From Candidatus Iainarchaeum sp. (lineage in GTDB: Archaea; Iainarchaeota; Iainarchaeia; Iainarchaeales; DTGL01): 64,000 nucleotides of DNA. A program made the translations under genes and the position numbers. Location of the stretch: assembly GCA_026396995.1 (NCBI GenBank), contig JAPLVS010000054.1, positions 24,052 through 88,051 on the forward strand, read 5' to 3'. Below are positions 8,156-55,496 of the stretch, in pieces. The notes beneath the pieces are model-generated. The model saw nothing but the letters and a program-made list of their open reading frames with translations. It had not been told where the DNA came from and searched no databases. Numbering within the stretch: the stretch's first letter is position 1; each line of letters opens with the position of its first letter.

Positions 8156-9073
8156 TTGCCTTTTTTCAACCAAAAAAACACCGAAAACATTAAATTTTCG
8201 GACTTCGTTATTAGATGCATGCCCCAAGACCAGCCTGAATTCGGCAAAACCGCCGCTTTGGCCAGATTAAGGGACGAGCTGGCGGTAGCAGGTTATTCAG
8301 CAAGGACCGCGGAGATGTACCTTGGGTATGTAGAAGACATGCTGGATTTCTCCAAAAAAGCCCCGGAAACCATTACACGGGATGATGTAATGGCCTTCCT
8401 TTCAAAAAAGAGTGCAGAAAACGTGAAGGGCGCAACAATGGCTCTTGTCTATGCCGCCCTGAAATTCTATTTCCATGCGCACCTCAAGCGCAAGATAATG
8501 GAGGACATCAAGCGCCCAAAAAAGGCAAAAAAGCTGCCGGCAGTCATGACCAAGGATGAAGTCAGAGCCATCATAAATGTTGCCTCGGGCACGCAGAACC
8601 GCCTAATCCTCGGGCTGCTTTATTCGAGCGGCCTGAGAGTCAGCGAAATAGTGAACCTCAAGATTGGGAGCCTGGACCTGAAGGAAAAAACAGCCGCAGT
8701 GCGGGGCGGAAAAGGCAACAAGGACCGCATGGTGATCCTTTCAGAATCCTGGGCAAAAGAATTCGGCGAGTTTGTTTCAAAAAGGAAGGCCCAAAGCGAG
8801 TTTGCCTTCTGCAAGAAAAACTGCAAACCGATAAGCGTTGACACGGTGCAGAGGCTTGTGAGGAAATGCAGGAAGCTGGCTGGAATTGAAAAAAACATAA
8901 CGCCCCACTCCTTCAGGCACAGCTTTGCAACACATCTCCTCGAGGCAGGCGAGAACATCAGGAAAATACAGGAACTGCTTGGCCATTCAAGCCTTTCCAC
9001 AACACAAATTTACACAATGATCTCAACAGAGGAATTGAAAAAAGTGAAAAGCCCGCTGGATTCGCTTAAATAG
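8156..9073 (+). CDS. xerA: Tyrosine recombinase (XerA/XerC-like integrase family)
   Basis: C-terminal catalytic signature ...R...HSFRHSFATHLLEAG...LGHSSLSTTQIYT (R, H-x-x-R, H, Y). The N-terminal SAM-like core-binding region is AGYSARTAEMYLGYVEDMLDF. The real start may be the internal MPQDQ. Confidence 0.7.
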   Translation: MPFFNQKNTENIKFSDFVIRCMPQDQPEFGKTAALARLRDELAVAGYSARTAEMYLGYVEDMLDFSKKAPETITRDDVMAFLSKKSAENVKGATMALVYAALKFYFHAHLKRKIMEDIKRPKKAKKLPAVMTKDEVRAIINVASGTQNRLILGLLYSSGLRVSEIVNLKIGSLDLKEKTAAVRGGKGNKDRMVILSESWAKEFGEFVSKRKAQSEFAFCKKNCKPISVDTVQRLVRKCRKLAGIEKNITPHSFRHSFATHLLEAGENIRKIQELLGHSSLSTTQIYTMISTEELKKVKSPLDSLK

Positions 9074-9304
9074 CCTTTTAGCCTGCGCCGGTGCTTTTTA
9101 AACCGCAAAGAGGGCCCCCCTGCTTCCGGTATTACGGCTTGCCTGGCACGGCAACCCCCAATAGCGGTTATGTTTAAGTTTCATTTTGCCTGAAAAAACC
9201 TGCAAAAAAACCCAAAAAAGGAAAAGCCGCCTTTGTTCACTTTATCCAATAAATTTAAATAGTAGAACATCGTTAATAATAGTTAAATTTGCAAGGCATT
9301 AAAC

Positions 9305-9574
9305 GTGCAGGAGGTAGGTCCCATGACATTGAGGCTTTCAGAGCTGTTTGGAATGGACATTTACACGACTGACGCCGAGAGGAGAGGGAAGGTTTTCGAC
9401 CTTGTAATAAACCTTGAAAAAGGAAGGATTGAAACCATTACCACGGAGCCTTTAAAGGCAACCTCGAAAGCGGAAGCGAAGAAAATAATAAGCGAAAAAA
9501 GCATTCCGTACAGCAAGGTAATATCCGCCAAAAACATTATTTTAATCTCCACAAAAGGCGAAGTGCAGAGATAA
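9305..9574 (+). CDS. PRC-barrel domain protein
   Basis: LSELFGMDIYTTDAERRGKVFDLVINLEKGRI is a typical PRC-barrel core. 89 aa, followed by hairpin GCCAAG..CTTGGC plus a T-run. Confidence 0.5.
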   Translation: MQEVGPMTLRLSELFGMDIYTTDAERRGKVFDLVINLEKGRIETITTEPLKATSKAEAKKIISEKSIPYSKVISAKNIILISTKGEVQR

Positions 9575-9712
9575 AAAGAACAAAAAGCGGAAATAATGAG
9601 CAATTAAAATCAAATTACCGGCCAAGCAGCAAGTGTCTTGGCTGTTTTTTATTTCAATTTATGTTTTAAATTTATGTATTTTATATATACATAAGAAAAG
9701 TTTTGTTGTTAG

Positions 9713-19639: not shown

Positions 19640-19918
19640 AAAGCGTGGGCACGCCCTGAAATCGATTTGGCCTGAAAGGCTGGAGTGACCCACTGCATTC
19701 CTCGCTTCCGTTTACCTCAAAGCATTTCGCTTAAAGGCCACCGTTGCTTTCTTCCGAACCTGGCGGGTTCACCCTTAGGCAAAACCTAAGAGGACAGAAG
19801 TTCCTTGTAGTGCAATGGCTCCGGCTTTCCAGGAAAAACCTTTCCCAAGGCTTCGGTCCCGGCGTGAAGCGGATTTCCGGCTACAGGGAACCGCTGCCTC
19901 CCCAACCTAGCCCACAAA
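19640..19918 (-). ncRNA. ffs: Signal recognition particle RNA (7S/SRP RNA)
   Basis: On the minus strand, GGUGAACCCGCCAGGUUCGGAAGAAAGCAACGGUGGCC matches SRP RNA helix 8 (GGAA tetraloop, AGCA). CACUCCAGCCU pairs with the 5' CCUGGAAAGCCGGAG to form helix 5. The terminal helix is GUGGGC/GCCCAC. A hairpin plus T8 run lies at the 3' end. Confidence 0.65.
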
Positions 19919-40325: not shown

Positions 40326-41942
40326 ATGTTTGACCTGTTAAAGGAAAAAATTGCAGCTTTTGCAAGTAAGCTCGGCAAAAAAGCAGAGGAAAAACCGGCA
40401 AAGCCTGCCCAGGAAACCCGGGAGGGCGGCAGGCGCGAGATAACTGATTATTACGAAAGGTCTCCGGCGCGCGCAGTCGAGGAAATGGTGCTTCCCGGCG
40501 CCAAGGAAAAAAAGGCCGGGGCAATAGCCGAACCGAAAAAAGCCCAGCCGGTTGGGATAGTTCCTGCCGGAGAAAAGCCCCGGGCTTTGGAAAAGCCTGA
40601 AAAAATGGGGGCGCTTTCAGAAAGCATTTCAAAGGTAAAAGAAAAGCTGGCCAGGGCAGAAGCCGTGGAAAAAGCCGCGCCAGAAAAACCGGCTGAAAAA
40701 AAGCCGGAAGAAGCCAAGGCCAAAAAGCCTGCGGAAAAGCCAAAGGAAGTTCTCCCGGAAAAACCCAAGCCGCCTGAAAAGCCGCCGGAAGAAGAATTCA
40801 GGCTTTCGAAAATCAGCGGCTTGTGGAAGGATGTTTTCAAGGCGCCTCCGAAAACCGTGCCGCCTGAAGAAAAATCCGGAATTCCAGCAGGGAAACCGGT
40901 TCAGCAGGAACTTCCGGAAATGCAGCCTGTTGCCAGGGAGCAAAGGGAATTTGAAAAGCCGCCAATTGTTTTTGAAAAGGAACCTGAAATAAAACCGCCT
41001 TTCAGGGGGCCTGCAAGCGCGCCAAAATTGCCTGAAACCGACAAAAGGGAACTGAAGGCGAAAGTCGGGGCAATCAAGACATTGAAGGGCGTTTTGCAGG
41101 GCTATGTGCAGTTGGGCGAAAAAGAAATCAACAGCATGCTTTTCGAGCTCGAAATGTCATTGCTTGAAGCGGATGTGAACCAGGAAACAGCGAGCGCCCT
41201 TGTCCAAAAAATAAAGGAACTGCTTGTGAATGAAAGGATTCCGCGCGGGAACGAGGTCAGCGGCTTCCTCAAGGGCAAAATCAAGGAAGCACTCACTGAG
41301 CTCACGGCCACAGAAAGAGTCAATCTGTTCGAATTGATTGAAAGGTCGAGAAAGCCTTTCAAAATCCTTTTCCTCGGCCCTAACGGCGCAGGCAAAACCA
41401 CAACCATCGCAAAGCTTTCCTTTGCACTGCAATTGACAGGCAAGACAGTCATTTGGGCTGCAGCCGACACCTTCCGCGCTGCTTCAATCGAACAGCTTGA
41501 AGAGCACGCGAAAAAACTGAAGATAAGGGTTGTAAAGCACAAATATGGTGCTGACCCTGCTGCAGTTGCATTTGATGCAGTGAAAGCGGCTGAAGCGAAC
41601 CACGTTGATGTTGTAATGGTTGATTCTGCAGGCAGGCAGGAAACAAACAAGAATTTGATAGAGGAACTGAAGAAAATCGAGCGCGTCCTGAAGCCTGATT
41701 TCAAGATTTTTATCGGTGAAGCGTTCGCAGGCAAGGGCTTATTGGAGCAGGCGAAGGCTTTCGATGAAGCGCTCGGAATCGACGGCTTCATCCTCACAAA
41801 AATCGACACAGACGCAAAAGGCGGCACAGTCCTTTCCCTATTATGCGAATTGAAAAAGCCGGTTCTCTTCATCGGCACAGGCCAGTCCTACGAAGACTTG
41901 GTTCCGTTCACGCCGCAGTACATTATCGACAGGATTGTTTGA
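40326..41942 (+). CDS. ftsY: SRP receptor FtsY with ~280-aa K/E/P-rich N-terminal extension
   Basis: NG domain with ILFLGPNGAGKTTTIAKL, DTFRAA, DSAGR and TKIDTDAKGG. PEKP-type repeats in the N-terminus. Confidence 0.9.
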   Translation: MFDLLKEKIAAFASKLGKKAEEKPAKPAQETREGGRREITDYYERSPARAVEEMVLPGAKEKKAGAIAEPKKAQPVGIVPAGEKPRALEKPEKMGALSESISKVKEKLARAEAVEKAAPEKPAEKKPEEAKAKKPAEKPKEVLPEKPKPPEKPPEEEFRLSKISGLWKDVFKAPPKTVPPEEKSGIPAGKPVQQELPEMQPVAREQREFEKPPIVFEKEPEIKPPFRGPASAPKLPETDKRELKAKVGAIKTLKGVLQGYVQLGEKEINSMLFELEMSLLEADVNQETASALVQKIKELLVNERIPRGNEVSGFLKGKIKEALTELTATERVNLFELIERSRKPFKILFLGPNGAGKTTTIAKLSFALQLTGKTVIWAAADTFRAASIEQLEEHAKKLKIRVVKHKYGADPAAVAFDAVKAAEANHVDVVMVDSAGRQETNKNLIEELKKIERVLKPDFKIFIGEAFAGKGLLEQAKAFDEALGIDGFILTKIDTDAKGGTVLSLLCELKKPVLFIGTGQSYEDLVPFTPQYIIDRIV

Positions 41943-41987: not shown

Positions 41988-42719
41988 TCAATCGCTTCTT
42001 TTTCGCCTGAACAAGCGCTTACGTTTTTTTCCGACAAGTTCTTCTACTACAAGCTTTTGCACTTGCCTTGAAACCTCTTCTCTCGGAAGCGTCGTGTCGA
42101 TTTCAAAAACACGCACGCCTTTTGCCCTGAGTTCGGCAAGCCTTTTTTCGTTTGCCTTCTCCATTCTTTCCAGGTTTTCAAGTTTTTCGTGCTTGAAAAC
42201 AACTCCGCCCCACTCGTCCACGACATTCCTTTCCGCAATCCTTTTCACTGAGACCTCTGGCGGTACCCTAAGGTGTATTACGGCGTCAGGCAAAGGGCCG
42301 GCTACAGCCCTGGCAGTGCTTTTTGTAACAAACCTCGGGATTTTTCCAGCGTATACTGCGGTAATTGCCGTCGCGTCGGTCACCGGATCCCTTTGGAAAA
42401 GGCGCACATCGCTTTTCCTTGTGGCAACCCTTGCAGCGCGGAATGCGGACCCTGCAATCGCACTGCCGGCCAGGATTTTTCTGTCGGAGCCTTTTTCGGC
42501 GCCTCTTTTTATGAGGCGCTTGCCATAGCCTCCAACCCTTCCGGCAACCCCCTTGAACCCGACAAAGTGCGGGGCGTCAATTATTGCAACATTAAGGCCC
42601 TTTTCCCTGAGTGCCTGCTGCAGCTTCCCGGCAACTGTTGTCTTGCCGCAGCCGTCGATTCCGACAATGGCGATATCTGTCGGGCGCTTTCTTTTAAAAG
42701 GGCGTTTCAAAGGCGGCAT
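41988..42719 (-). CDS. Thymidylate-kinase-like P-loop NMP kinase paralog (short form)
   Basis: N-terminus MPPLKRPFKRKRPTDIAIVGIDGCGKTT has a Tmk-type P-loop. A DRY-like QRDPVTDATAI...AVYAG follows. It is the last gene of a four-gene minus-strand operon. Confidence 0.45.
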   Translation of the reverse strand: MPPLKRPFKRKRPTDIAIVGIDGCGKTTVAGKLQQALREKGLNVAIIDAPHFVGFKGVAGRVGGYGKRLIKRGAEKGSDRKILAGSAIAGSAFRAARVATRKSDVRLFQRDPVTDATAITAVYAGKIPRFVTKSTARAVAGPLPDAVIHLRVPPEVSVKRIAERNVVDEWGGVVFKHEKLENLERMEKANEKRLAELRAKGVRVFEIDTTLPREEVSRQVQKLVVEELVGKKRKRLFRRKRSD

Positions 42720-44032
42720 TATTTTTTCCTTCTTCCCAATTTTGCCTTCACTTTTTTCTCAATTGAAATTTTCCATTCAAGGTAGCGCTTGGCCCCCCTG
42801 GTTATTGTTTCGACCTTCGAGGACACATTGTATTTGCCGTAAAGCCTTCCGAGTTTCTTGTATGCGAAATGGTCTGCCAGAATGCCCATCATTTCCGGTT
42901 CCCTTACAATCGAGGAAACAATATAAGCGGTTCTCCCAGCAAAGGGAATTGCTCCGATGAGCATCGCTTCCCCGCTGTGCAATCTCTTGATTTTTTCATA
43001 TTCTTCCGCAGAAATATTTCCGGCCAAGCGCCTTGCCATCCCAATTCCCCTCATAGCGGCCGTATAGGCCGGCCTTCCCACGGTTCCGACGCCGGCCATT
43101 ATTACCGGCACCCCGCTTATTGCCAGATGCACTCCGAAGTGCGTCAAAAAATCCGAAAAATAGCCTTTCCCTATTTTTTCCCTCAATTCCGCAGCTTTCT
43201 CCTGACCAATTCTTCCTTCTTTTTCCCAGCGCCAGATTCCATCAACCATAAATTGCATGGCCTGCTCTTTCTTTCGCTCCAGATATTTTTTCCTGCCTTT
43301 TTCCATTAGCCTTTTTTCTTTCAATATCCTTTGCACCTGCCCTAAAACTGCCTCCTTTGGAAGAGATGCATCTATTTCCAGAATCCACACGCCTTTTGAC
43401 GCAAGCTCCGCCTTGCGTTTCTGATAAGCAGAATTCAATCCCTCAAGATTTTCAGGCTTTTCATGCTGGAATTCAATTGCGTGCAAGCCACTGCCACCAG
43501 CTCTTTTTTTTGCAAGCCGTTCGGCAGCAGTTGCAGGCTCTACCGAAAGAAATACTGCAACATCCGGCAAAGGCCCCCCTGCAATCCGCCCGGCTGCCTT
43601 GGAAAACGCCAGGATTATCCTTCCGCCGTACTGCCTTGCCAAGACAGGCGCTTCAATTGCCGGATGCCTTTCAATAATCCTGACAGTGCTTTTTCTCGAT
43701 TTGGCCCTTGCCATCCTTGTCGGAAGCGAGGCAATCGCTCCGCCAGCTGCAGCAAGCCTCTTTGATTGTTTTTCCGCTCCTTTTGCACTAATACTCCTTC
43801 CAAACCCACTCACTCTTCCAATCATTCCGCCATAATCCTGGAAATGCGGAACATCCAGGACCGCGGTTTTGGTGCCCTGCGCATTCAACCGGCTTTGCAA
43901 TCCCCTTGCAAGTGTTGTTTTCCCCGCGCCATCAATCCCCACAATCGCAATATCAGTGGGCCTTTTCCGCCTGAACAATCTTTTTGGGGGCATAAATATG
44001 ATGCTGTTTGTTGAGTTTAAATTACTTTTCAA
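42719..44032 (-). CDS. Thymidylate-kinase-like P-loop kinase paralog fused to a ~200-aa C-terminal domain of unknown function
   Basis: The N-terminal 230 aa are paralogous to 41988-42719 (PPKRLFRRKRPTDIAIVGIDGAGKTT, ERHPAIEAPVLARQYGG). The C-terminal domain is uncharacterised and moderately hydrophobic. TAATG overlap with the downstream gene. Confidence 0.45.
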   Translation of the reverse strand: MKSNLNSTNSIIFMPPKRLFRRKRPTDIAIVGIDGAGKTTLARGLQSRLNAQGTKTAVLDVPHFQDYGGMIGRVSGFGRSISAKGAEKQSKRLAAAGGAIASLPTRMARAKSRKSTVRIIERHPAIEAPVLARQYGGRIILAFSKAAGRIAGGPLPDVAVFLSVEPATAAERLAKKRAGGSGLHAIEFQHEKPENLEGLNSAYQKRKAELASKGVWILEIDASLPKEAVLGQVQRILKEKRLMEKGRKKYLERKKEQAMQFMVDGIWRWEKEGRIGQEKAAELREKIGKGYFSDFLTHFGVHLAISGVPVIMAGVGTVGRPAYTAAMRGIGMARRLAGNISAEEYEKIKRLHSGEAMLIGAIPFAGRTAYIVSSIVREPEMMGILADHFAYKKLGRLYGKYNVSSKVETITRGAKRYLEWKISIEKKVKAKLGRRKK

Positions 44033-44071: not shown

Positions 44072-44860
44072 TTATTGCTTTACCACCGGCACAAGCCTTC
44101 CAGACCTTTTCACAAGCTTGCCGTCAGGCGTGAACACAAACATTTTCGCCTTTCCAGTGCGAGGGTCGATGGCTTCGATTTTGCAGTATTTTTCCAGGTC
44201 ATCTGTCGGAACGAACCTGCCCTGCTTTGTAACATTTTCAGATTGCCCCTGCCTTTCATACCCGATGCTTTTGAAAATGCCCTCAAATTTGCCTGGTTTA
44301 AACGAATGTTCACTATAAAACTCTATTTTTCTTCCGGGATTGCCGAAGGAAGGGCGGTTTCCTGCTCTCTTTGCAGGATTTTGGGAACGCACATGCCTTT
44401 CAGCGCGGGAAGCAAATTTTTTGCCGAGCCCAAGCCCCCGCATGCGTTCCGGGATGCGCATGTGCGCCAGGTCTTCTCTGGCAAAGAAAAAAGGGGCGCC
44501 TTTGTCAGGTATGACATCAGTTCCGATTCCCTTTTTCAGCTGGCACTCCAATAACGAGATAATGGACCCGCCCCTGGCAATGATAATTTTCCCGTCCGAA
44601 AGCAGATGTGCACCTCGGAGATTGCCAAAAATAGTTTTCAATGGCACCATGATTTCCTGCTCTGGCCCAATCCAGAATGCGGCATATCTGTTATTGCTTT
44701 TTTGCAGGTCTATCTCCAGCGGCCACACAAGCGGCTTCTTTCCTGCCGCCCCTCTTGCAGTGTCCCTTCTCTGCCTTTTGGCTTCGAGTTTTTCCCTTTG
44801 ATTTGGATATTTATATTTTCTTTCCGCTTTCGGGATTCTGCGCCTTGATTTTTGTGGCAT
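44072..44860 (-). CDS. Hypothetical protein with GNAT-like motif-A segment; paralog of 44870-45693
   Basis: Basic N-terminus. GKKPLVWPL, IIIARGG, and AHMRIPERMRGLGLGKKFASRAERHV, which resembles acyl-CoA-binding motif A. C-terminal IEAIDPRTGKAKMFVF. Confidence 0.4.
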   Translation of the reverse strand: MPQKSRRRIPKAERKYKYPNQREKLEAKRQRRDTARGAAGKKPLVWPLEIDLQKSNNRYAAFWIGPEQEIMVPLKTIFGNLRGAHLLSDGKIIIARGGSIISLLECQLKKGIGTDVIPDKGAPFFFAREDLAHMRIPERMRGLGLGKKFASRAERHVRSQNPAKRAGNRPSFGNPGRKIEFYSEHSFKPGKFEGIFKSIGYERQGQSENVTKQGRFVPTDDLEKYCKIEAIDPRTGKAKMFVFTPDGKLVKRSGRLVPVVKQ

Positions 44861-44869
44861 TTTTTCATC

Positions 44870-45693
44870 TCACTTGACCGGAAAAACGTATTCCTTCACT
44901 TTGCCTGTCCGCGGGTCGATTGCTTCAATTATATGGAAGCGGGACATATTTGATGTCGCTTTTACCCTACCTTCTTTGTGGTATTTCCTCAACACAAACT
45001 CATCTTCTTCTGGGCTTTCTTGCCAGTACCTAATTTTTGTAAAAAGCCGGTCAAAAAGGTCCCGGCGGTTTTCGCCCATCCAAATCGTATTTTTTCCGTC
45101 CTTTTCTCCCTTACATCCCTGTCGGCCCTTGAAGCAAACCTTTCGGCCAGTCCAGTGCCTCTCAGTTTTTTTGGCAAATACATGTGCGCGATATCTGCAG
45201 TGGGCTCTATTGCAAAAAAAGCCATTGCCCAGTGCTTGTCAGTAATCGGTTGCTCACCACCGTTTTTCCATTCATACAGTTTTATCGCTACAAATGGCGA
45301 ATAGTTTGGCACGGTCCTCGCAACAATGATTCTGCCTCCAGGTCCGCGGTAAACCCCCTGCAATAATCTGCCATGTTCCGCCAGCGGAACCGGCACCTCG
45401 TTTTTTCCGTCGAGCAGAACCACTTCCTTCCTTTTGGTTTTTTCCCCAGTTGGCCCCGCGATTTCCCGTTCCACCACGCCTTGTTCCAACATGGTCAAAG
45501 GCTGGACTAATGGTTTTTTGCCGGCTTTTCCCAGTGCTTCCCTGGCAGGAATACCCTCAGCAATCAGTTTTCTTGCCCTTCTTTTTCTTTCTTCCCGCCT
45601 GGCCAAATTCCTTGCGAACCTTTTCCTGGCAAACTTGTCAGGCTCAGGCTTGCCGGCAGTCAGGTATTTTTGAGGAATTTTCCGTGAAGACAT
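44870..45693 (-). pseudogene. Paralog of 44072-44860, interrupted by a frameshift (234-aa N-part 44989-45693 plus 69-aa C-part 44870-45079)
   Basis: Shares GKKPLVQPL, RIIVART, AHMYLPKKLRGTGLAERFASRADRDV with its neighbour. The paralog's C-terminal motif IEAIDPRTGKVKEYVF lies in the separate overlapping 69-aa ORF. Confidence 0.4.
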
Positions 45694-47427: not shown

Positions 47428-47691
47428 ATGGCTGGAAGGATTTTACGAATAGCCAAGAAGGCCGGGCAGGCAGTGAAGCACAGAGTCACCAGGTTGAAGG
47501 CCGCAGGCAGTGCAGCGAAAAGGGCGGTCAGGAAAGAAGACCTGGCTTATCTCAAAAGGCGGATTTCGGCCATTGAGCAGGCCAGGGAAAAACACCCCGG
47601 GGCAGCGCACGAGTTAGGCAAGCTGAATGCAAGGCGCAAAAAGCTCGAAGGCAAGATTGCCCGCCTTGGCGGGAAAAACCCCGAGCAATAG
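47428..47691 (+). CDS. Hypothetical small basic coiled-coil protein
   Basis: 87-aa ORF, K/R/A-rich. Confidence 0.3.
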   Translation: MAGRILRIAKKAGQAVKHRVTRLKAAGSAAKRAVRKEDLAYLKRRISAIEQAREKHPGAAHELGKLNARRKKLEGKIARLGGKNPEQ

Positions 47692-48038: not shown

Positions 48039-48538
48039 ACTTTGCCCAAGCGTCAATTTCCGTAAATTTAATTTGCCGGCAAAGCTTCCCAAGGGCAAAG
48101 TATTTTTTATTGTTTGCAAGCATATAATCGGTTATGCCTCGGTTTGCCCGCGGGATTGTACGATCTGTTGCTGGTAGAATTTCCCAACGCAGGGAAACCA
48201 GGCGAGCGGCCAGGAGGAAAACCCTTGGCAGGGAACTTGGCATTGTCGGCCTGGACATCGGGCACCTTAATAGGACGGCTTCATTGCACGGCAGCATTGC
48301 CAGAATGCGGCGCCGGAAAGGCGAACCTAACCTCCAGTCCCTGGGAATGGAAGCCAGGGCGCGCAGAGCGGCAGTGCCTCTGGAAAAAAGATCCAGAAGG
48401 CTTAGGGCCCAGCTCGCCGGCCTTGGGGCAAAACCTTAGCAATCCTTCAACTTCCAAGCCCCACAACTGCCCGCAACCTGCTTGAAGCCCAATCTCCTTA
48501 TCGCAAGGTAATAAAACCTTTCAATGCTTATTTTTTGC

Positions 48539-49897
48539 ATGGCCTTGGGTGAAAAGTTAAGGGCGGCAATGGAGCGCCTGAAGAATGCCGCTTTTCTCGA
48601 TAAGGATGCGATAGCGGAAGCCGTCAAGGAAATCCAGCGCGCGCTCATTTCTTCGGATGTTGAAGTAAACCTTGTGTTCAATCTGAGCAGGGAGATAGAG
48701 AAAAAGGCATCCGAGGTTCCGCCAAAAGGCATTGACCGCAGGGAATTCATCATCAAGACCACTTACGATTTGCTCGCAGACTTAATCGGCGGCCAGCATG
48801 AAGCGCCGAAAGAACCGAAAAAAATCCTTTTGCTCGGCCTATTTGGGCAGGGCAAAACCACGACTGCCGGAAAACTGGCGGCATGGCATAAAAAGCGCGG
48901 AAGGCATGTTTCCCTAGTGTGCGCGGACGTGCACAGGCCTGCTTCTTTCGAGCAATTGCAGCAGGTTGCAGGGCAGGCTGGCGTTGAGTTTTACGGCATC
49001 AAGGCCGAAAAGAGCGCTGTTAAAATCGTGCAGAGCGCATTGCAGGAACTGAAGAAGCAGGATTTGGTTATTGTCGATTCTGCAGGCCGCTCAGGCCTGG
49101 ACGAAGCGCTCATAAAAGAAATAATAGATGTCAAGGCAGCATTCAACCCTGACCAAATCTGGCTTGTTTTGAGTGCGGACATAGGCCAATTGGCGAAGAG
49201 GCAGGCACAGGCTTTCCATGAAGCCGTCGGCGTTAATGGAATCATTCTTTCGAAAGCCGACAGCTCTTCCAAGGGCGGAGGCGCTCTCGCTGCCTGCGCT
49301 GAAACAAGGGCGCCTGTGTATTTTATCGGGACAGGTGAAAAGCTTTCAGACCTTGAAATATTCGATGCAAAGCGCTATCTTGGAAGGATAATGGGCTACG
49401 GCGACCTTGAAGCGCTTCTGGAAAAAGCGAAAGAGGCGGCAGAGGAAAAGGATTTCAAGCCAGAAGACATCCTGTCCGGAGATTTTAACCTCGATGTTTT
49501 CTACAAGCAATTAGAAGCCACAAAGAAAATGGGCCCGATTTCAAAGGTTGCCGAAATGATGGGCCTGAAAATGCAGTTGCCCAAAGAACAGCTTGAATTG
49601 GGCCAGGAAAAACTCGATTCTTACAAAATAATAATGGATTCCATGACCAAACAGGAAAAAAAGCACCCGGACATAATTAGCAGGGAGCGCATTGAAAGGA
49701 TTGCAAAGGGCAGCGGCCGCAGGCCAGAGGATGTCAGGGACTTGCTGAAGCAGTACAGGCAGCTTGAGAAAATGCTCGGCAAATTCAAGAAAATTGCAGG
49801 AAAAAAAGACCCAGAGAAAATGGACGAAAAGGACATCCAGAAAATGATGCAGAAATTCGGCGGCATGAGGAAAAAAAAGCGCCTGAAATTCAGGTAA
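48539..49897 (+). CDS. srp54: Signal recognition particle protein SRP54
   Basis: N domain, G domain (LLGLFGQGKTTTAGKLA, DVHRPAS, DSAGR, SKADSSSKGG), and a Met-rich M domain (MMGLKMQL...MMQKFGGM). Confidence 0.9.
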   Translation: MALGEKLRAAMERLKNAAFLDKDAIAEAVKEIQRALISSDVEVNLVFNLSREIEKKASEVPPKGIDRREFIIKTTYDLLADLIGGQHEAPKEPKKILLLGLFGQGKTTTAGKLAAWHKKRGRHVSLVCADVHRPASFEQLQQVAGQAGVEFYGIKAEKSAVKIVQSALQELKKQDLVIVDSAGRSGLDEALIKEIIDVKAAFNPDQIWLVLSADIGQLAKRQAQAFHEAVGVNGIILSKADSSSKGGGALAACAETRAPVYFIGTGEKLSDLEIFDAKRYLGRIMGYGDLEALLEKAKEAAEEKDFKPEDILSGDFNLDVFYKQLEATKKMGPISKVAEMMGLKMQLPKEQLELGQEKLDSYKIIMDSMTKQEKKHPDIISRERIERIAKGSGRRPEDVRDLLKQYRQLEKMLGKFKKIAGKKDPEKMDEKDIQKMMQKFGGMRKKKRLKFR

Positions 49898-52118: not shown

Positions 52119-52916
52119 TTAATGGTTTTCTTTGCGCTGTTTTGCCCTGCCGGCCCTTATGTCTTTTGGCTGTATTTCACCGCCGGCAAGGGCTTCAGGG
52201 CTGTAGAATTTTTCAGGCAATGCCATTTTTGGGCCGTCCGGCATGAACCTGGCGGATTTCGGGCCTTCAGTTCGAATCCAGCAATGCTCTGCCTTGTCGA
52301 ACCTGTACCTTTCCCTGAAAATGTTTATCGGAATTCCCGAGCGCCAGTATTTCCTTGCTTTTTCAGCCACGTGCCCGGATGCCTTGATTTTTTCCGGGCT
52401 TTCGCTTGGCGGGAACCTGTACAATGAACCAACGTGGATGTGGTCGAAAACATACGTTTTTGTCGCATCAGCCCTTGCCCTGACAGTCAGCCCAAGCTGA
52501 TGCGGGCTCTTCGGGAGGACAAGGCTTTTTTCAAGCCTGAAAGAAGCCCAGTCAGGGTGAAAGTAAGGCGATGCCTGCCTTGAAATTCCAGTGGCTAGAA
52601 TATGCTCCGGCCTGTTGTTGTCAAAGGCGATGTCAATCGCTTCGGCATGAGGGTGTTCCTGGTATTGTTTGCGCCGCATTTCCGCAGCCGAAAAGCCGTT
52701 TCTTGCAATCGCGATTCCGCTTTCGGGTTTTGGGTCGCTTGTTCCGTGAATCAAAAAAGCAGTGTCCCTTCTCCTTACAATCTCTTCGGCTTCAGCAACT
52801 GAAAGCCCGGTTTCCTGTGCAATCCGCTGGATTTCTTCAGGCGAATGCGGTTCCTTTTTCTTCCGCATTTTCACAGCTTTCCTTATCTGCCCAAAGCGGT
52901 TTTTCGGCACAGGCAT
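52119..52916 (-). CDS. Hypothetical protein, paralog family member 1 (tandem with 52973-53683)
   Basis: Shares RIRQIRKAV, SPEEI..IA..TGLS.AEA.EI, HI.A.GISR, ATRAR, YWR with its neighbour. Function not recognised. Confidence 0.45.
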   Translation of the reverse strand: MPVPKNRFGQIRKAVKMRKKKEPHSPEEIQRIAQETGLSVAEAEEIVRRRDTAFLIHGTSDPKPESGIAIARNGFSAAEMRRKQYQEHPHAEAIDIAFDNNRPEHILATGISRQASPYFHPDWASFRLEKSLVLPKSPHQLGLTVRARADATKTYVFDHIHVGSLYRFPPSESPEKIKASGHVAEKARKYWRSGIPINIFRERYRFDKAEHCWIRTEGPKSARFMPDGPKMALPEKFYSPEALAGGEIQPKDIRAGRAKQRKENH

Positions 52917-52972: not shown

Positions 52973-53683
52973 CTAATCGTCCCTGGCCAGCCTGTAAGTT
53001 GTTTTTGAAGCCCTTGTTTTCCCTGGCTCTTCGCTTGTAAGGATTTCAGGCATCAGGAATATTAAGGGCAGGCCTTTTTTCATATCGGCCTTGTCTTTCA
53101 GCCACCATGCCCCTTCCTTCGGGTAATATTTTTTCAGGAATTCATCCAGCCTTATTGCCTTTCTCCAATAGTCTACTGCAACCTTTTCGATTTCCGCACC
53201 GCACTTTTGCAGCCTCAAAGCCAGCTCGACATCATGCATATCCGCCACAATTGCTTTCTTCGTGTTTATTCTTGCCCTTGTCGCCCTAAGGTCGCCCTTC
53301 GGGTGCGATTCATACCGGTTGATTGCCCACAGGTTGCCGGGCCAGAAAAAATACGCGTTTTTCCTTGAAATGCCCAATGCCCTTATATGATCCGGAATCA
53401 CTTCATCAAAGGCTTTGTTTACTGGCCCAAGGCGCCTTTCCTCATAACGGTTGCCGCGCTTAAAGCCTTCCTCCTCGATTTGCCCAGCACGTTCTTTAAA
53501 TCCAAAGCGGAGCGCAAAAACCTTGTCTTTCCTTTCGATTATTTCCCTTGCTTCAGCTTCGCTCAACCCTGTTTTCCCGGCGATCCTGCCAGCCATCTCT
53601 TCCGGTGCGCCCTGTGTGTTTTCACGGATTTCCACAGCTCTCCTTATTTGGCGGATTCGGGTCGCCGGAATCCTTGCAGGCAT
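52973..53683 (-). CDS. Hypothetical protein, paralog family member 2
   Basis: See 52119-52916. N-terminus MPARIPATRIRQIRRAVEIRE. Confidence 0.45.
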   Translation of the reverse strand: MPARIPATRIRQIRRAVEIRENTQGAPEEMAGRIAGKTGLSEAEAREIIERKDKVFALRFGFKERAGQIEEEGFKRGNRYEERRLGPVNKAFDEVIPDHIRALGISRKNAYFFWPGNLWAINRYESHPKGDLRATRARINTKKAIVADMHDVELALRLQKCGAEIEKVAVDYWRKAIRLDEFLKKYYPKEGAWWLKDKADMKKGLPLIFLMPEILTSEEPGKTRASKTTYRLARDD

Positions 53684-53779
53684 ACACTACTTTTTTTCCC
53701 GAAGTGGTTATTATTCTTTCCAGAAAGCGCACGTTTTCTTTTTATTCTTTTTCGTCCTGCTCCTTACCGAGGGGATTTT

Positions 53780-54397
53780 ATGGTTGGGAAATTTATTGTT
53801 TTCGAAGGCACCGATGGCAGCGGGAAAGGCACAATGCTTGCCAAGACCGCGGAATGGCTTTTCAATTCAAGCATCGGCCACGACAAGATTGTTTTGACCA
53901 GGGAACCGACTTTTTCAGGGCCTGGCTCCCAGATAAGGAAGGCATTGAAATCCGACAAGGAACCGATGACCAAGGCAAAGCAATTGCTCTCGCTTTATTT
54001 CGAGGACCGCAAGGAACACATAGACAAGCTCATAAAGCCTGCATTGCAACTGGGTTCGATTGTGCTCTGCGACCGCTACAAGTACAGCACCATCTGCTAC
54101 CAGCAGGCGCAGGGCATTCCTGTGGAAAGCATTGTCGCAATGCACAAGCGCTTGCTCGTGCCGGACCTTGTCCTTGTTCTCGATGTCGACCCGAAGGTTG
54201 CAATGAAGAGGATAAGGGCGAGCAGGTCGAGCATTGAAAAGTTCGAAAAGGATTTTTTCCTCGGGGAAATCAGGCAGAACTACCTGAACCTGAAAAAAGC
54301 GCTTCCTGACGAGCCGATAAAGTTCATCGATGCCAATGCCGAGCCGGATGAAGTTTTCCTCAAGGTGAAAAAGGAAATCGCAAAGGTCCTGAAATAA
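53780..54397 (+). CDS. tmk: Thymidylate kinase
   Basis: FIVFEGTDGSGKGT P-loop, DRYKYSTICYQQAQG (DRY...Y.Q), and a lid region. 205 aa. Confidence 0.8.
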   Translation: MVGKFIVFEGTDGSGKGTMLAKTAEWLFNSSIGHDKIVLTREPTFSGPGSQIRKALKSDKEPMTKAKQLLSLYFEDRKEHIDKLIKPALQLGSIVLCDRYKYSTICYQQAQGIPVESIVAMHKRLLVPDLVLVLDVDPKVAMKRIRASRSSIEKFEKDFFLGEIRQNYLNLKKALPDEPIKFIDANAEPDEVFLKVKKEIAKVLK

Positions 54398-54470: not shown

Positions 54471-55496
54471 ATGGTTGATATCGGGAATGTGATTGGCTTT
54501 TCGTTTTCATGGTATAAAAGCAGGGAATTTTTGAAGTACGCCCTGTTTTATTGGGCCCTATTTTTGGTGCTTGGGGCGGCAGTGCTGGCCTTGTTCCTGG
54601 CATTTTTTGGCAGCTATGTGAGTGCCTTTATGGCTGACCCGGGTGCATTATTGCAATCCATTGCCGCAGACTTGGCGAGCGGGGCCTTTTTGGGCAAAAT
54701 CCTGGCTTTTTTCGCTGTTGCCTTTGTGCTTTTTATCTTGTTTTGGTTTGCGACCATTTACATTAATGCCCTCATGACGCTGTTTGCCCTGAGAACAAAA
54801 GGCTTTTCGCACGCCCAGTTCCATTTTTCAAAGGTTTTCGGCTTAATCGGCCTGAGCATTGTAGTGATGCTGGCGGCGCTGTTTTATTCTTTTGATGAAA
54901 AAATCCGCAAATGGCAGTGGCTCAGCCTTGCAGGCCTGGTTGTTTCGATTGTCCTGCTGGCACTGTCGGGGATTTCCCTTGCATTCCTGGGCTTAGGGCT
55001 GCTCCTGCTTGTGGTTTGCTTTTTAGCCTACATTTATTTTGCGATTGTGAACAGCCTCAGGATGGCTTCAGGCTCTGTGATTTTCTTGCAGGCAGAAAAA
55101 GGCATAATGGCGTCGCTCAAGGAATCCTTTGGCCTCACAAAAGGCCACCTTATTGAAATCTTCGTGTGCAATCTCGCGGTCGGGGTCATTGTGGCGGTAG
55201 TGACTTCCCTGATTGTGGCGGTATTGGGCATCATTATAGGCCTGATTTTGATGCCGTTCATGCCCCAAGTGGCATTGCCTGCTTCACTGCAATCAGCCCT
55301 TGCAACTGAAGGCATTTTAGCAAACAATCTGGCTTTAGTCCTGGGCCAGTATTTGGGCCAGCAAATAGCAAGCTTCCTCATAATGCCGTTCTCATTGCTG
55401 GCAACTGCTTTTGTGGCAGTAGGCATTTACTCCGAGCTCTTAAAGGACAAAAATGCCCAGGCAGCCAGCACTGCAGCGCCTTCTCCGCCGGTGTGA
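54471..55496 (+). CDS. Hypothetical polytopic membrane protein
   Basis: 341 aa with about 8 hydrophobic helices. No motif recognised. Confidence 0.45.
   Translation: MVDIGNVIGFSFSWYKSREFLKYALFYWALFLVLGAAVLALFLAFFGSYVSAFMADPGALLQSIAADLASGAFLGKILAFFAVAFVLFILFWFATIYINALMTLFALRTKGFSHAQFHFSKVFGLIGLSIVVMLAALFYSFDEKIRKWQWLSLAGLVVSIVLLALSGISLAFLGLGLLLLVVCFLAYIYFAIVNSLRMASGSVIFLQAEKGIMASLKESFGLTKGHLIEIFVCNLAVGVIVAVVTSLIVAVLGIIIGLILMPFMPQVALPASLQSALATEGILANNLALVLGQYLGQQIASFLIMPFSLLATAFVAVGIYSELLKDKNAQAASTAAPSPPV

Follow-up and report, generated by a model that had tools for sequence, protein, structure and literature searches.

A Diverged Pair of Tmk-Fold Kinases in Candidatus Iainarchaeum, One of Which Is Fused to a Putative Membrane-Interface Domain

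Introduction

Which substrate is phosphorylated by a kinase that has the fold of thymidylate kinase (Tmk) if the genome already encodes an ordinary Tmk? This question is raised by two adjacent genes in a stretch of 64,000 nucleotides (nt) of contig JAPLVS010000054.1 from Candidatus (Ca.) Iainarchaeum sp.; this whole stretch is here referred to as the window. The long gene (42719..43993, minus strand) encodes a protein of 424 amino acids (aa), composed of a Tmk-fold kinase domain and an uncharacterized C-terminal domain, hereafter called domain X. The short gene (41988..42719, minus strand) encodes a kinase-only paralogue of 243 aa. A canonical thymidylate kinase is located outside this unit, at 53780..54397 on the plus strand, and is used below as a reference.

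An earlier reading of this DNA, made from the sequence alone (the original prediction), described the two proteins as extra, strongly diverged Tmk-like P-loop kinases encoded in a four-gene operon, which might serve in nucleotide salvage, in the modification of RNA ends or in defense. The analysis outlined here suggests that the pair are kinases with a remodeled acceptor site and points, more tentatively, to a substrate that resides in the membrane.

Kinase Domains

Both proteins pass the gathering score of the Pfam family PF02223 (Thymidylate_kin; 46.5 bits for the short and 44.7 bits for the long protein versus 27), but fail the dTMP-kinase equivalog TIGR00041 (38.2 and 40.5 bits for the pair versus a cut-off of 83.25), where dTMP denotes deoxythymidine monophosphate. 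The canonical Tmk of the window reaches 144 bits with the latter profile, in agreement with the earlier description of the pair as additional paralogues. The same separation is seen with a hidden Markov model of the diverged family, which gives 92−222 bits for its members and 45−47 bits for canonical Tmk (47 bits for that of the window). When 1.84 billion representatives were searched exhaustively with a profile, 419 proteins were identified at E ≤ 1e-3, i.e., kinase-only proteins (~220−250 aa), domain-X proteins and fusions of both.

A profile of 36 kinase-family members could be aligned from end to end with Tmk structures in the PDB (E 1.3e-22 for Aquifex 2pbr), and hhalign related the family profile to the window's own Tmk at 98.3% probability. 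When an AlphaFold (AF2) model of the long protein (predicted local distance difference test score, pLDDT, 88.7; predicted template-modeling score, pTM, 0.70) was compared with known structures using Foldseek, the top 20 matches were all Tmk, with a template-modeling score (TM-score) on target of 0.77−0.81, followed by deoxycytidine kinase (dCK) and AbmG. Strong divergence within a Tmk-like fold had been predicted, and these results bear it out. As judged from profiles and the model, the pair represents a subfamily that is clearly distinct from canonical Tmk.

Invariant or nearly invariant in this family are the G, G and K of the P-loop, R110 at the position of the DRY motif, R160 of the lid (A..R) and the lid His-Glu pair, H177−E178. 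The corresponding motifs are encoded in the long gene at 43913-43939 (P-loop, GIDGAGKTT), 43661-43672 (ERHP, equivalent to DRY) and 43460-43471 (lid, FQHE), and in the short gene at 42636-42662 (GIDGCGKTT), 42384-42395 (QRDP) and 42186-42197 (FKHE), all on the minus strand. Because the residues on the ATP side and those involved in transfer are conserved, both paralogues seem to have an intact apparatus for ATP binding and phosphate transfer. At the DRY position, Arg alone is kept, within ERH in the long and QRD in the short protein. The residues that hold dTMP in Tmk, i.e., the helix-3 Phe/Arg, the Tyr of DRY and S..YQ, are not conserved, where those of helix 3 and S..YQ align with unconserved small residues in the family, and a test for a canonical acceptor site, defined as DR(Y/F/H) in combination with the helix-3 Phe and Arg and S..(A/C)YQ, was failed by both proteins.

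An apparently intact ATP machinery combined with unconserved dTMP-holding residues suggests that the two proteins are active kinases of the Tmk fold with a remodeled acceptor site, i.e., that they are not dTMP kinases. We infer that kinase activity has been retained; a change of acceptor from dTMP through remodeling of the site is more firmly supported by the alignments than is the retained activity. Whichever of the readings discussed below holds, dTMP kinase would be the wrong annotation for these genes. The combination of canonical residues and a known neighborhood, which would mark the pair as ordinary members of a described family, was looked for and found to be absent.

In summary of the comparison with Tmk (PF02223, TIGR00041; Aquifex 2pbr, M. 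tuberculosis 1g3u), the fold, the P-loop GxDGxGK[ST]T, the Arg at the DRY position and the Arg and Glu of the lid are shared. In addition to the differences described above, the family of the pair is characterized by a basic (K/R)(K/R)RP tail before strand 1, an RxP motif and the lid His-Glu, one copy of the pair bears a hydrophobic helical domain of 190 aa, and the gene of the genuine Tmk lies at a distance of 10 kb. Deoxynucleoside kinases (dNK) and AbmG (PF01712; 8j5e, dCK, Dm-dNK) are the second-best matches in both sequence and structure. In our own reading of the sequence, E-R in place of D-R is reminiscent of the dNK "ERS" motif, but the E-P catalytic-base motif of these enzymes is not present as such and the PF01712 scores (25.0 and 15.3 bits) are below the gathering score of 27.

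Domain X

In the long protein, the kinase domain (residues 1−231; 43301..43993, minus strand) is followed by domain X (residues 232−424; 42722..43300, minus strand), which is all-helical. The original prediction recognized no motif in the C-terminal ~200 aa; indeed, these ~190 aa gave no match in Pfam-A, NCBIfam, PHROGs, PDB sequences or PDB folds. Two hydrophobic segments, GVHLAISGVPVIMAGVGTV (43079-43135, minus strand) and LIGAIPFAGRTAYIVSSIV (42905-42961, minus strand), are conserved across 25 homologues and each contains Pro and Gly. The Kyte−Doolittle hydropathy of the second segment is 1.5−2.3, where the value of 2.3 is reached in bacterial members. Invariant or nearly so, in X numbering, are His58, Arg76, His108, Pro119, Gly122 and Tyr126, which correspond to His289, Arg307, His339, Pro350, Gly353 and Tyr357 of the long protein. 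We read X as a putative module that sits at the membrane interface or is re-entrant and that bears a conserved polar site. An internal duplication of X, considered from two H...P...G...AY segments that look alike by eye, was rejected (hhalign 1.5% probability).

The occurrence of X was counted among 152 proteins obtained from the homology and exhaustive searches, and 64 of these carry it; proteins and loci are referred to below by handles (P and L, respectively). At 50% identity, the genes that contain X form at least 64 clusters. X is an undescribed conserved domain common to archaea and bacteria. The order kinase followed by X is found in P0001-3, P0038 and P0070, and the order X followed by kinase in P0004 and P0006. 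The latter, permuted order is genuine, because the gene upstream in L003/L012 encodes a different protein. In L011 the kinase (P0009) and X (P0044) are encoded by separate, convergent genes located 2 bp apart, and the kinases that are nearest to the pair of the window are almost all linked to X. In L013 (Ca. Iainarchaeum), a stand-alone X adjoins a different P-loop kinase, of the PRK/uridine-kinase (Udk) family (61.9 bits). This gene (8594-9610, minus strand) encodes 338 aa with an N-terminal extension of ~90 aa and lies between the stand-alone X and BacA; it is a second, unrelated kinase family that adjoins X.

Bacterial X proteins of ~670−930 aa start with a PAP2 domain, followed by an uncharacterized central region of ~250 aa and then X, and they are annotated as "membrane-associated phospholipid phosphatase" or as hypothetical. 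PAP2 is present in 8 of the 39 multidomain X proteins; this part resembles B. subtilis YodM/PgpB (E 5e-19) and gives weak NCBIfam matches to undecaprenyl-diphosphatases. X of these proteins, which are found in Dehalococcoidia and relatives (the related X-bearing protein P0075/P0160 is from a Dehalococcoidia metagenome-assembled genome, MAG), agrees with that of the long protein in its invariant His/Arg/His/Pro/Gly/Tyr and in its hydrophobic segments, but here it is preceded by PAP2 and a central region that is unrelated to the Tmk-like kinase. The PAP2-central-X proteins P0031, P0057, P0060, P0065, P0080, P0086, P0087, P0137 and P0145 (alignment A7) share in the central region an invariant K, W-Q, N and D-L-E-S, without a database match. 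A degenerate Tmk-like kinase in this region was considered and rejected (hhalign 0.4% probability). A protein-kinase-like core (..IDLES..), which was an impression by eye, was not backed by any tool, and the PDB profile search matched the PAP2 part only.

In archaea, stand-alone X genes are found next to BacA/UppP: they adjoin it in convergent orientation in L005-7 and are divergent from it, with 64 bp between, in L017/18. In L013, BacA is one gene away from X and GT2 glycosyltransferases are also found nearby. In L003/L012, the gene encoding X followed by the kinase is located directly downstream of that of a DDxxD protein, which is polyprenyl-synthase-like at a sub-threshold E of 0.0018. At 7374-8669 in L005-L007 and 7303-8582 in L013, the stand-alone X also directly abuts or overlaps the end of a same-strand gene for a ThiI-type PP-loop ATPase; in L017/18, ThiI is two genes away. 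A DUF92 membrane protein of the VTE6/phytyl-phosphate-kinase type (L009 1-692, plus strand) is encoded ~7 kb from the X-kinase gene of P0006, which may be coincidental.

No additional kinase-family genes were found within 6−8 kb of the stand-alone X loci, and no recurring neighbor was seen for the kinase-only members P0023, P0015 and P0008 or the stand-alone X P0010. A word-indexed homologue search with the X-domain alignment gave 3 matches only and was uninformative, and in an alignment of 9 X sequences the conservation of every stretch was too low for use as a search pattern. A GTDB genome scan with the long-protein alignment yielded no confirmed locus, a metagenome scan nothing beyond an already known locus, and a scan of viral contigs no relatives.

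Possible Function

The hydrophobic character of X, its fusion to PAP2 and its adjacency to BacA point to the membrane, and the genomic associations of X provide a testable link to lipid-carrier metabolism. We tentatively favor a reading, itself open to considerable doubt, in which the long protein is a membrane-interface kinase that acts on a lipid or on a substrate of the polyprenyl-phosphate cycle, and the short protein is a lineage-specific duplicate without X. Here, domain X would hold the Tmk-fold P-loop phosphotransferase at the cytoplasmic face of the membrane, and a phosphate would be moved from ATP to a membrane-borne acceptor that is presented or bound by X. This acceptor would most likely belong to the polyprenyl (dolichyl) phosphate carrier cycle or be another lipid phosphate; dTMP would be served by the ordinary Tmk of the genome. 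The short gene would be translationally coupled to the long gene, and because Tmk enzymes are dimers, the short copy may pair with the long copy as a partner subunit. Alternatively, it may act on the same substrate as a soluble isoform. The position of X in the bacterial proteins after a multi-helix PAP2 membrane domain, next to which a further anchor would be superfluous, suggests that X contributes binding or catalysis beyond anchoring.

Membrane lipid and polyprenol kinases are represented by LpxK, which is a P-loop kinase, DgkA/undecaprenol kinase and the dolichol kinase Sec59/DolK. Of these, LpxK is an example of a P-loop kinase whose lipid substrate is phosphorylated at the membrane surface. 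The likeness is that of functional analogy, i.e., phosphotransfer to a membrane-embedded acceptor; there is no detectable relation in sequence or fold, and none of these enzymes was found among the PDB profile or fold matches of the pair. A literature search for membrane kinases resembling Tmk, or for polyprenol kinases in archaea, returned nothing relevant.

Several observations weigh against this assignment. The hydropathy of the hydrophobic segments in archaeal X is 1.5−1.65, which is borderline for membrane insertion, and the high isoelectric point (pI) of the pair (10.5−10.9), together with the basic N- and C-terminal tails, would fit nucleic-acid binding too. Most members of the kinase family do not carry X and are found in unrelated neighborhoods. 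The BacA adjacencies are those of related Iainarchaeia that share a syntenic block with ThiI, such that they are not fully independent, and the polyprenyl-synthase match remains below threshold. Lipid-carrier genes are not found within the 64-kb window, which contains no BacA, PAP2 or glycosyltransferase gene (GT2 included) and no homologue of the polyprenyl-synthase-like protein; ThiI is absent as well. In addition, the proposed acceptor is purely inferred.

The strongest competitor, unlikely in our view and yet to be taken seriously, is that the pair are nucleotide or nucleoside kinases of altered specificity (acting on deoxynucleoside or nucleoside monophosphates, dNMP/NMP, or in nucleoside salvage), which fill a gap in a reduced DPANN genome and where X would do no more than localize one copy. 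The nearest known relatives of the pair, Tmk, dCK/dNK and AbmG, are all nucleotide or nucleoside kinases, the majority of the family lacks a membrane domain, the kinase-only member P0015 is encoded ~4−6 kb from genes for orotidine monophosphate (OMP) decarboxylase and a phosphoribosyltransferase, and a gene of the PRK/uridine-kinase family is found beside X in L013. Yet, the base- and phosphate-binding residues of Tmk are unconserved and the dNK scores are sub-threshold. Furthermore, a role of X as a mere anchor would be redundant after the six-helix PAP2 domain of the bacterial proteins, and the fusion of X in both orders together with its conserved polar invariants argues that it takes part in the reaction.

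An activity on RNA, tRNA or DNA ends, or another function as nucleic-acid-associated P-loop proteins, with Arg/Lys-rich tails that bind nucleic acid, would account for the pI and the basic tails. It would also fit the ThiI-type gene, of a tRNA thiolation family, that the stand-alone X abuts in L005-7 and L013, but ThiI and X are apart in L017/18. The match to KTI12/PSTK (PF08433, 19.6 bits versus 22) is confined to residues 17−49, i.e., the P-loop, with no full-length match; no similarity of the Clp1/PNK type was found in the PDB profile search, and X is hydrophobic and helical and not a known RNA-binding fold. We consider such a role very unlikely. Even less credence is given to a defense, toxin or mobile-element cassette (a zeta-toxin-like or nucleotide-depleting kinase). 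Weak PADLOC (VakA, E 6e-7) and zeta-toxin Pfam matches (Zeta_toxin PF06414, 20.9 and 17.4 bits versus 22.3) and an insertion-like GNAT-like gene pair upstream, of which one copy is frameshifted, would be consistent with such a cassette, but the PADLOC and zeta-toxin matches span only ~25 residues around the P-loop. Moreover, the long kinase occupies a conserved housekeeping position (eIF6, L18Ae, prefoldin, FtsY, OPT, SRP54) in three genomes, viral contigs hold no relatives, PHROGs returns "thymidylate kinase" only, and the guanine-plus-cytosine content across the region is unremarkable. The roles in salvage, RNA-end modification and defense suggested in the original prediction did not gain positive support, and the new evidence points instead to the membrane.

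A more far-reaching version of the lipid-kinase proposal, which as a whole we regard as improbable, would be that the Tmk-fold kinases linked to X constitute a new lipid kinase of the Iainarchaeia (DPANN), acting on polyprenol/dolichol(-phosphate) or another lipid and non-homologous to the known ones. Here, X would be a new membrane-interface module that binds lipids of the polyprenyl-phosphate type, used in bacteria behind PAP2 and in archaea beside BacA/UppP, and this module would supply a part that is missing from the recycling or salvage of lipid carriers in host-dependent archaea. Should a membrane lipid be the substrate of the kinase, the Tmk fold would have been recruited for lipid-carrier metabolism, and the result would be a first functional handle on X, a conserved and so far unannotated domain that DPANN archaea share with Chloroflexi-type bacteria. 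Since dependence on hosts for lipids is assumed for DPANN archaea, a membrane salvage or recycling kinase would bear on the upkeep of their glycan-carrier lipids. If the pair instead are nucleotide kinases, they would expand the nucleotide salvage repertoire of reduced genomes modestly.

Genomic Locus

The open reading frame (ORF) of the long gene extends mechanically to a TTG at 44032 (437 aa). ATG 43993 is the start in the public annotation (P0001) and in the N-termini of homologues, and a public 424-aa "AAA family ATPase" from a Ca. Diapherotrites MAG is 100% identical to the long protein; the ATG is thus the likely true start. A TATA-like hexamer, TTTAAA (44016..44021, minus strand), read directly from the sequence 23−28 nt upstream of this ATG, falls inside the TTG-extended ORF. 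With a spacing as expected of an archaeal TATA box, it is a candidate promoter for a leaderless long-short transcript. The overlap of the long-gene stop and the short-gene start in TAATG was verified, as were the shared basic N-termini, MPPLKRPFKRKRPTDIAIVGIDGCGKTT and MPPKRLFRRKRPTDIAIVGIDGAGKTT, each followed by GIDG(C/A)GKTT. An alignment of the two proteins spans 249 aa with 45% identity (E 9e-66), far beyond chance, which agrees with the proposed duplication and divergence. The best relatives of the short protein are the kinase domains of long proteins (43−46% identity), and it keeps ~12 basic residues homologous to the kinase-X linker; by these comparisons, the short copy arose by a lineage-specific duplication and has lost X.

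On the plus strand, the window harbors the housekeeping order eIF6, L18Ae, prefoldin and FtsY, followed on the minus strand by the kinase pair, two GNAT-like genes and an OPT transporter. Beyond OPT are SRP54 and an A24 peptidase (plus strand), then a NUDIX hydrolase and a GNAT acetyltransferase (minus strand), and then the canonical tmk. In the syntenic loci L001/L002 and L004, where the long proteins are 48−55% identical, the long kinase stands by itself, with a membrane-transporter gene (OPT in L001/L002) on one side and the convergent FtsY on the other, without the short copy and without the two upstream genes. These relatives, the orphan-like character of the upstream genes and the TATA-like box before the long gene imply that the four genes of the predicted operon are not conserved as a unit; what is conserved as a functional unit is the long gene, extended here to a long-short bicistron.

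The tmk ORF can be extended by ~130 codons upstream (53387-54397, plus strand), and its orthologue in L001 (2186-3103, minus strand) is predicted to be 305 aa long, where the 100 aa by which it is extended at the N-terminus have no TIGR00041 match. The long call is probably over-long, with the true start likely at MVGKF, 53780.

Upstream Genes and Other Features

Upstream gene 1 (44072..44860, minus strand) encodes a basic, weakly GNAT-like protein of 262 aa, and upstream gene 2 (44870..45693, minus strand) a frameshifted paralogue. The matches of this pair to Acetyltransf_CG are sub-threshold (E 0.0024 and 0.035, the latter for gene 1; 18.4 and 14.7 bits versus a gathering score of 30), and a 76%-identical homologue is labeled "GNAT superfamily" by JGI. 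The tandem paralogy described for 44072-45693 was confirmed (BLASTP, 35% identity over 150 aa, E 5e-16), but not a conserved partnership with the kinases: the pair is near-orphan, with 2 matches in 5.8 billion proteins, and upstream gene 1 is not a conserved partner. As read, the ORFs are 44072-44860 and 44989-45693. The homologous C-terminus of gene 2 (..IEAIDPRTGKVKEYVF) continues in another frame, in ORF 44870-45079 (tblastn), where the shift is near an A-run at ~45085-45095, GGACGGAAAAAATACG. An indel of the assembly, decay to a pseudogene and programmed slippage are possible causes of this frameshift.

Three further proteins without a Pfam match are encoded at 52973-53683 (minus strand, 236 aa), 52119-52916 (minus strand, 265 aa) and 54471-55496 (plus strand, 341 aa), of which the last is strongly hydrophobic. 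An unannotated ORF of 87 aa at 47428-47691 (plus strand) is very basic and helical. FtsY (40326-41942, plus strand) has an N-terminal low-complexity region of ~250 aa, rich in Pro, Glu and Lys, before the NG domain, and long ORFs antisense to it (e.g., 41102-41878) are apparent compositional artifacts. The window also contains six tRNAs and the archaeal RNA of the signal recognition particle (SRP; 19643-19917, minus strand; Rfam RF01857, 138.8 bits), i.e., the SRP RNA is found in the same window as SRP54 (48524-49897) and FtsY, which flank the kinase locus.

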